Shown: positions 15,293 to 15,397 of the stretch, one piece after another
Layout of the letters: the number at the start of each line of letters is the position of its first letter
Position numbering within the stretch: position 1 is the stretch's first letter
DNA from: a virus
Reading direction: 5' to 3' (one strand)
IMG/VR virus record: IMGVR_UViG_3300005077_000946
DNA length: 17,161 bases
The notes under the pieces: generated by a model
Seen by the model: only the letters and a program-made list of their open reading frames with translations
Database searches by the model: none
What the model was told of the DNA's origin: nothing
Made by a program: the position numbers and the translations under genes

Positions 15293-15397
15293 GGGGACGG
15301 ACGTGTGTGTAGAAAGCACAACTGAAGAGGGCGAGAGGGCGCCTACTACCTTCGGTCCGTAGAGTGGTGAGCAGTTCGTAACTGCACGGCCCCACCA
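15293..15397 (+). ncRNA. Unusual 105-nt GC-rich tRNA-like RNA (tRNA-like ends GGGGACG...CGGCCCC-A-CCA)
   Basis: The termini pair like an acceptor stem and CCA is encoded. It has a T-arm-like hairpin GCAG-TTCGTAA-CTGC and an internal hairpin with a UUCG-containing loop. No canonical cloverleaf with D and anticodon arms could be drawn. Confidence 0.35.

Follow-up and report, generated by a model that had tools for sequence, protein, structure and literature searches.

A short tRNA-like RNA gene without an anticodon in a phage tRNA array belongs to a small RNA family absent from Rfam

A 105-nt segment lying between two tRNA genes of the viral contig IMGVR_UViG_3300005077_000946 is a genuine feature whose likeness to a tRNA is not due to chance, and it is a member of a small RNA family which is absent from Rfam and has been found so far only inside phage tRNA clusters. 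The family ranges in size from 105 to 163 nt and is confined to the tRNA arrays of a few related uncultured phages. The window we analysed is the entire contig of 17,161 nt, which represents a phage-like genome, and the segment (15293–15397, plus strand; sequence GGGGACGGACGUGUGUGUAGAAAGCACAACUGAAGAGGGCGAGAGGGCGCCUACUACCUUCGGUCCGUAGAGUGGUGAGCAGUUCGUAACUGCACGGCCCCACCA; referred to here as the window copy) is part of a dense, same-strand tRNA array (28 tRNAs by ARAGORN and 26 by Rfam). Its neighbours are tRNA-Met(CAU) at 15207–15283 and an irregular tRNA-Ala(UGC) at 15477–15550, which scores 32 bits in Rfam and was missed by ARAGORN at default settings (this tRNA has an odd D-arm, yet G3:U70 is present).

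A first-pass annotation of the contig had described the segment between tRNA(CAU) and tRNA-Ala as a strongly GC-rich RNA with acceptor-like ends, a T-arm-like hairpin and no canonical cloverleaf, and this was right in essentials. The segment is present where it had been placed, with a GC content of 60% compared to 23–50% in the surrounding sequence, its GGGGACG and CGGCCCC ends pair at six of seven positions (with an A5.G97 mismatch) and are followed by A-CCA, and the hairpin GCAG-UUCGUAA-CUGC is found next to the 3' acceptor strand (Table 1). Scans of the window copy with ARAGORN at default settings and with Rfam at gathering scores were both empty, in keeping with the missing cloverleaf. The scan for tRNA, tRNA-Sec, tmRNA, Y RNA and vault RNA that had been proposed at the same time was negative throughout, using ARAGORN at default and Rfam down to E<=10, where the sole overlapping match was to a snoRNA (E=2.2) which we took as chance. 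When all four family members described below were searched with Rfam and ARAGORN no known family was recovered, even at E<=10, and no ORF of at least 60 aa overlaps 15293–15397. It should be noted that the minimum free energy (MFE) of the window copy, -34.4 kcal/mol, does not stand out from that of shuffles (z=-0.18), and stability alone therefore proves nothing here.

Table 1. Coordinates of the window copy, its structural elements and the upstream promoters.
Feature	Position in window	Strand	Basis
Two tandem sigma-70-like promoters, TTGACT-17-TATATT	14840–14868, 14934–14962	+	Consensus scan
Whole tRNA-like RNA gene, short form of the family, 105 nt, encoded ACCA end	15293–15397	+	End-to-end match to covariance model R1
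Acceptor-like stem, 5' strand GGGGACG	15293–15299	+	6/7 pairs with 15387–15393
H1, D-arm-like hairpin, UGUGU/AGAAA loop/GCACA, 5 pairs	15306–15320	+	Pair table
H2, extended anticodon-arm-like helix without anticodon	15321–15356	+	ACUGAAG (15321–15327) with CUUCGGU (15350–15356)
Linker CCGUAGAGUGGUGA with invariant UGGUGA (15365–15370)	15357–15370	+	Family alignments
Reduced T-arm, GCAG/UUCGUAA/CUGC, 4 pairs	15371–15385	+	Pair table
Unpaired A, 3' acceptor strand CGGCCCC, discriminator A, encoded CCA	15386–15397	+	Alignment

Homologues of the window copy occur in other uncultured-phage contigs, and we refer to these as long forms. A degenerate 3'-end pattern scanned over a metagenome collection gave 16 loci, twelve of which were chance matches in GC-rich coding DNA, while two (L025 and L030) carry copies identical to the 163-nt copy of contig L015 and two more (L026 and L038) carry new variants of 162 nt. 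The family is represented by four distinct sequences (the window copy, L015=L025=L030, L026 and L038), which amount to effectively three lineages with one short form, and all four lie between tRNA genes on the tRNA strand. We then used the three long forms alone, with the window sequence excluded, to build a covariance model (R1), which matches the window at the segment over the full model span with 33.4 bits (E=2e-8 in 235 kb), compared to 11.9 bits for the best tRNA. This full-span match fixes both the homology and the boundaries of the window copy. Apart from this, the window and the other loci searched, which included the T4 tRNA region and five phage loci with a major-vault-protein (MVP) gene, gave nothing above the 11.9-bit tRNA.

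Wider searches returned no additional members. DNA similarity searches of 50,697 phage records with the window copy, the array or a long form gave nothing or only matches of T-arm or tRNA length, IMG/VR pattern scans for the family gave none or only chance matches in GC-rich coding DNA, an MVP-based locus search in IMG/VR found nothing, and GTDB genomes held no further family members. Relatives reached through the 216-aa ORF and MVP homologues (42–49% identity) showed no synteny and had no family member, and the contigs reached through the HAD-like ORF of L026 (L058–L063) have tRNA arrays and no family member. The closest relative contig is L015, with an MVP 79% identical to that of the window and a syntenic gene order. 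At the position of the window copy L015 has an ordinary tRNA-Lys(UUU), and its own 163-nt copy, with the same ends and several identical blocks, is found two tRNAs further on between tRNA-Ile and tRNA-Glu, indicating that the window copy is dispensable at this site, which counts against its being functional.

The window copy carries the hallmarks of the family, which are the GGGGRCG...ACGKCCCC-ACCA termini, H1, the ACUGAAG/CUUCRGU helix, UGGUGAG and the T-arm, and is filed as the short variant because it has neither the 58-nt H3–H5 module nor the D-like loop GUAUGGAAA seen in the long forms. In all four members the terminal stem pairs GGGG(A/G)CG with CG(G/U)CCCC and is followed by A-CCA, and pair 5 is never Watson-Crick (A.G in the window copy, L026 and L038, and G.U in L015). 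The 3' end, ACGGCCCCACCA, is identical in the window copy, L026 and L038, and the unpaired A separates the acceptor-like stem from the T-arm. H1 is anchored by an invariant GAAAG and has the stem UGUGU/GCACA in the window copy, ACGAC/GUCGU in L026 and L038, and ACG(G)CC/GGCGU in L015, such that four pairs are altered on both sides between the window copy and the long forms and are still paired (the chance of finding a full partner, given the anchored 3' strand, is 0.016–0.058). The H1 loop is the D-loop-like GUAUGGAAA in the long forms and AGAAA, without GG, in the window copy.

H2 has a sequence-conserved stem of 7 bp, (A/G)CUGAAG with CUUC(A/G)GU, which is 100% paired in every member. Here the first-pass annotation needs correction, as it had reported an internal hairpin with a UUCG-type loop: CUUC(G/A)GU is the 3' strand of a helix whose partner is (A/G)CUGAAG in all four members, and the three long forms read CUUCAG and so are without any UUCG. 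The apical region of H2 is 15 nt in the long forms and 22 nt in the window copy, and includes a self-complementary hexamer which is GGCGCC, or CUGCAG in L015 where all six bases differ. In the window copy an 8-nt insertion pairs with the 3' half of the GGCGCC palindrome and forms an inner hairpin (GGGCG at 15329–15333 with CGCCU at 15340–15344) that is present in both the MFE and the family-consistent fold; it is this GC-rich hairpin that explains the high GC content of the window copy.

The linker which follows H2 in the window copy stands where the long forms have the 58-nt module plus linker, and UGGUGAG, of which it contains the UGGUGA, is invariant in the four members and resembles a class I variable loop. 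The module is found only in the long forms and folds into two or three hairpins (H3–H5), of which H4 combines a stem that covaries with a loop of 7 nt, N-UAGCUA, in which UAGCUA is again self-complementary. The H2 hexamer and the UAGCUA of H4 suggest possible loop-loop dimerisation of the long forms. In the window copy GGCGCC is partly sequestered by the inserted GGCG and H4 is absent, and the idea does not apply to it as it stands. The T-arm of the long forms has five pairs and a canonical UUCGAGU loop, with a stem that covaries between L026 and L038 (GCAGG/CCUGU vs GUUGG/CCAAU), and in the window copy T-loop position 58 is U instead of A. The GG, position 58 and the fifth T pair are tRNA-elbow features of the long forms that the window copy has lost. 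The short form is without the module, the D-like loop GG and a canonical T-loop, yet retains all four helices intact.

These helices are supported by covariation. We made a four-sequence core alignment by cutting the 58-nt module from the long forms by hand, and in this 95.7% of cells are paired compared to 31–47% with the partners slid, and four pairs are altered on both sides, which was reached by 5 of 500 shuffles. RNAalifold predicted 35 pairs for the long forms, five of them compensatory. The family-consistent fold of the window copy has an energy of -30.9 kcal/mol, or -33.8 kcal/mol with the acceptor stem and T-arm enforced, compared to the MFE of -34.4 kcal/mol. The window copy matches L026/L038 exactly or almost exactly in its 5' 11 nt, its 3' 12 nt, the H2 strands and UGGUGAG, with differences in H1 and the loops. 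Across all members there is likewise little or no change in the acceptor end (mismatch included), the H2 strands and UGGUGAG, whereas changes in H1 and the T stem are compensated. Such a mosaic points to selection on the fold and on particular contact surfaces, foremost among them the acceptor/CCA end.

The family RNA looks tRNA-derived, judging from the D-loop-like GUAUGGAAA of the long forms, the variable-loop-like UGGUG and the T-arm. Set against a canonical tRNA, with its 7-bp acceptor stem, discriminator base, CCA and T-arm with a UUCRANY loop, the window copy has an acceptor stem with 6/7 pairs followed by A-CCA and a 4-bp T-arm whose loop, UUCGUAA, has U at position 58 (the long forms have the canonical 5 bp and UUCGAGU). 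A tRNA origin would also fit an irregular decoding tRNA, either a tRNA-Pro(CGG) at 15327–15397 with a 5' leader or a tRNA from which a small intron in the anticodon loop is removed. ARAGORN at an 80% threshold does call a tRNA-Pro(cgg) at 15327–15397, and L015 has a tRNA-Pro(CGG), and no tRNA-Pro is seen in the window, whose array runs off the contig end. We nonetheless regard this as very unlikely, as the supposed anticodon sits in CUUCGG, part of the conserved 3' strand of H2 which reads CUUCAG in three homologues, and the tRNA-Pro model needs an acceptor stem with two mismatches and is without a D-arm. The arm at the anticodon position has 7 bp and an apical region of 15–22 nt rather than a 5-bp stem and 7-nt loop, and no match to the Rfam tRNA model (RF00005) is found at E<=10. 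When introns were allowed, ARAGORN gave only low-threshold and mutually inconsistent calls, and the only introns known from tRNA genes of bacteria belong to group I and are hundreds of nt long. As there is no anticodon loop in any member, no member can decode, and with the intron-allowed ARAGORN search and the Rfam tRNA, tRNA-Sec and tmRNA models all failing, the earlier suggestion of a tRNA with an insertion finds no support, whether as a decoding or as a spliced tRNA. The other readings offered at that stage were a tRNA-like RNA, with a putative regulatory role, and a small structured RNA processed with the tRNAs. The tRNA likeness and the processing with the tRNAs are both supported by the homologues in tRNA arrays, the covarying helices, the tRNA-type leader and trailer, and the encoded CCA.

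Bacterial tRNA-Sec (8/5) and the allo-tRNAs (8/4 and 9/3) are also irregular tRNAs, and allo-tRNAs are found in phage tRNA clusters as well (PMC5389517). These have an acceptor/T branch of 12–13 bp, a UCA or other anticodon loop and a long variable arm. The family resembles them in that an extra layer, N8 facing the unpaired A, is placed between its acceptor and T stems, with 13 stacked layers in the long forms and 12 in the window copy. However, tRNA-Sec and allo-tRNAs decode with a normal 7-nt anticodon loop which the family does not have, and the tRNA-Sec model (RF01852) gave no match on any member.

The tandem promoters listed in Table 1 lie one in each copy of a perfect 51-nt direct repeat (14821–14871 and 14915–14965) just upstream of the tRNA block, and from their consensus sequences they probably drive the block including the window copy. 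No terminator-like site was found on the plus strand in 14500–17161. In most tRNAs of the block the CCA is encoded and aaa(a)gttt(t)at comes after it, the following gene beginning 8–14 nt further on, and the flanks of the window copy are as in the neighbouring tRNAs (the leader aaaaaattat precedes the first G and the trailer aaaaagttttat follows CCA). Such tRNA-like flanks argue for co-transcription with the tRNAs and excision by tRNA-processing enzymes, and the window copy is most likely co-transcribed with its neighbours and cut out as a non-decoding tRNA mimic. We note that a very stable long hairpin is located directly 3' of the window copy (15408–15476, plus strand; -29.5 kcal/mol, z=-5.3; arms at 15412–15425 and 15457–15470) and abuts tRNA-Ala with no spacer; this hairpin might be a site for RNase III-type processing, or else represent a further small RNA.

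On balance we lean towards the window copy being a functional gene whose product is a small, tRNA-derived RNA that takes no part in decoding, a tRNA mimic that would act via its acceptor end and H2 arm. Such an RNA would be transcribed with the tRNAs from the tandem promoters ~330–450 nt upstream and released in a tRNA-like manner, with the flanks pointing to an RNase P cut before G15293 and 3' trimming to the encoded CCA at 15397. The predicted fold, which is supported by the covariation, is a four-way junction with a GC-rich acceptor stem in which pair 5 is non-Watson-Crick, a D-arm-like hairpin, a long, sequence-conserved arm without anticodon at the anticodon position, and a T-arm. Mimicry would depend on the invariant acceptor/CCA end and the conserved H2 arm, through which the RNA might be bound, charged or modified with no decoding, and the conservation pattern suggests a factor that reads tRNA acceptor ends. 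The RNA might serve to divert or soak up a host enzyme or toxin that targets acceptor ends, as a decoy or sponge, or it might be an aminoacyl carrier, and we favour neither. A more speculative version is that it could be a decoy for host toxins attacking tRNA CCA ends, together with a small RelA/SpoT-type HD hydrolase encoded in the window. This small HD_4/HD-domain protein (RelA/SpoT-hydrolase type) lies between tRNA blocks (10747–11304, plus strand), is conserved in L015 (12709–13260), and could be involved in alarmone hydrolysis or the repair of modified tRNA ends.

A less probable explanation, but one we take seriously, is that the window copy is a relic, derived from a long form by a 58-nt deletion, a small H2-loop duplication and loop erosion, and which is still transcribed and excised with no activity. 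It could be decaying because the D-like loop GG, T-loop position 58, one T-stem pair and the 58-nt (H3–H5) module have all been lost, leaving it without a canonical T-loop and T-stem, and its z-score is -0.18 compared to -2.68 for the L015 long form. It is also the single short form known, where the pattern used in the metagenome scan would match its type and gave long forms only, and there is other wreckage in the array such as the truncated tRNA-Pro at 15087–15114. Against this, none of the four helices is broken and H1 has had its whole stem rewritten with compensating changes, and the ends, H2 strands and UGGUGAG are still identical to L026/L038 when neutral decay should be uniform. The flanks of the window copy are also intact. 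The truncated tRNA-Pro itself consists of an orphan T-arm, 3' acceptor strand and CCA on the plus strand, is a remnant of the tRNA-Pro(UGG) which is intact in L015 (15979–16057), and indicates a recent deletion or rearrangement in the array.

The tRNA-like domain of tmRNA shares with the family a GGGG 5' end, A73-CCA, and an acceptor stem and T-arm with no anticodon arm, and in both there is extra structured RNA inserted between the two halves. One could picture the window copy as a tmRNA in miniature, comprising the tRNA-like domain and perhaps a tag-coding region and able to enter ribosomes that have stalled, and besides the GGGG...CCCC-ACCA termini, the T-arm and the lack of an anticodon, the long forms have short open frames which end in or near the H4 hairpin, the loop of which holds UAG/UAA. 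We consider this very unlikely as the family has no G3:U70 (3:70 is G-C in all four members), no pseudoknots and no conserved tag frame, and is less than half the usual tmRNA length. ARAGORN and the Rfam tmRNA, beta_tmRNA and permuted tmRNA models were empty on every member, and no SmpB match was found when the 17 larger window ORFs were compared with Pfam. In addition, the candidate frame is out of register between L015 and L026 owing to an indel, the differences between L026 and L038 are mostly non-synonymous but compensatory for RNA pairing, and the window copy has no room for a tag.

Eukaryotic vault RNAs are ~90–140 nt, tRNA-gene-like (with box A and box B), and have a terminal stem and variable centre. 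The family shares with vault RNA and the bacterial Y-RNA-like YrlA a length of ~100 nt, tRNA-like modules and a terminal stem, and it is conceivable that the window copy is the RNA partner of a phage MVP homologue, a functional analogue of vault RNA bound or packaged by an MVP shell, as an MVP homologue is encoded ~9 kb upstream of the family member both here (3875–6337) and in L015. If true, this would be the first viral or prokaryotic vault ribonucleoprotein, but we give it little credence. Vault RNA and YrlA have no encoded acceptor-CCA end, unlike the family, and no Vault (RF00006, E<=10) or YrlA model match was seen on any member. No Ro/TROVE protein, the kind through which vault RNA associates with MVP particles, was found, and there is no TROVE/TEP1-like RNA-binding protein among the window ORFs. 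The co-occurrence with MVP rests on two closely related phages, and five other MVP-bearing phage loci have no tRNA array or family member near MVP (tRNAs are absent in L001 and L002, and a family member is absent in L001, L002, L019 and L021).

The MVP homologue of the window is an 820-aa protein encoded on the plus strand (Pfam MVP_shoulder 1e-27 and Vault_3 8e-9), with counterparts in L015 (4815–7274), L019 and L021. More than 4,600 homologues were found at E<=1e-20, bacterial MAGs included, and the window protein is 41–43% identical to MVPs of uncultured phages of 462–735 kb. In the jumbo-phage contigs L019 and L021 the MVP gene lies within an NAD-salvage cluster (NAD synthase, NMNAT-like, NUDIX, NADAR and NAPRTase), echoing a 2026 preprint that reportedly links vaults to NAD+/ADP-ribose. 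Genes for a DUF2201 VWA-like protein and a class 3 lipase (937–2193 and 2553–3353, plus strand) are found upstream of the MVP gene in the window, and this order is kept in L015.

Small stable tRNA-like RNAs such as T4 RNAC and RNAD have been known in phage tRNA clusters for fifty years. The T4 tRNA cluster encodes RNAC (species 1) and RNAD (species 2), both stable RNAs to which no role has yet been assigned (PMC3014915; PMC9697503). T4 RNAC is the nearest analogue of the window copy, having the same architecture and no detectable homology. Like the family, it is encoded inside a phage tRNA gene cluster, is of similar size (139 nt vs 105–163 nt), and has a fold in which an end-to-end terminal stem adjoins a T-arm, with internal hairpins and no anticodon. 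Its T-arm is canonical (CCGGG-UUCGAAU-CCCGG). In contrast to the family, which ends in CCA, RNAC as annotated has UA at its 3' end and no encoded CCA, there are U.U mismatches in its terminal stem, and its internal hairpins are unrelated in sequence. Model R1 does not match RNAC (L023 2909–3047) and gives only T-arm-level matches on the T4 tRNAs. The family is new and unrelated to T4 RNAC and RNAD, within a known but poorly understood class, and the window copy is its reduced variant.

We have in this a second, unrelated family with T4 RNAC-type architecture, found in huge-phage-like genomes and having a long and a short form, which suggests that tRNA mimics lacking an anticodon are a device that recurs among phages and not a T4 oddity. 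The invariant blocks (the acceptor end, H2 arm and UGGUGA) give comparative leverage and are candidates for mutation, and in annotation the gaps in phage tRNA arrays should not be presumed to be spacers or dead tRNAs.

We also considered rRNA mimicry, as the genome scan gave one 23S rRNA match (L041) and the long forms resemble 23S H25 and H69–H71 by eye. This was rejected because Smith-Waterman scores were not above those of shuffles (4–33/200 for L041 and 18–167/300 for E. coli 23S) and the best nhmmer match of the family profile to E. coli 23S had an E of 0.99. Several other irregular units are present in the arrays. In the window, a tRNA at 13094–13170 (plus strand) has a CUA anticodon of amber-suppressor type and is labelled 'Pyl' by ARAGORN; the ORF lengths fit the standard code best, and an alternative genetic code was rejected for the window ORFs. 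An undetected tRNA-like unit is found at 16068–16146 (plus strand; GUUGGGC...GCCCAAC-CA, with the T-arm GGAGGUUCGAUGCCUCC), and is followed by an irregular tRNA at 16148–16233 (plus strand) which ARAGORN reports as 'tRNA-???' and Rfam scores at 26.6 bits. The L015 array includes a tRNA with an 8-nt anticodon loop (four-base 'taaa') at 12354–12432, a weak tRNA (32.9 bits) at 15894–15968, and an unannotated tRNA-like gap filler at 16802–16892.
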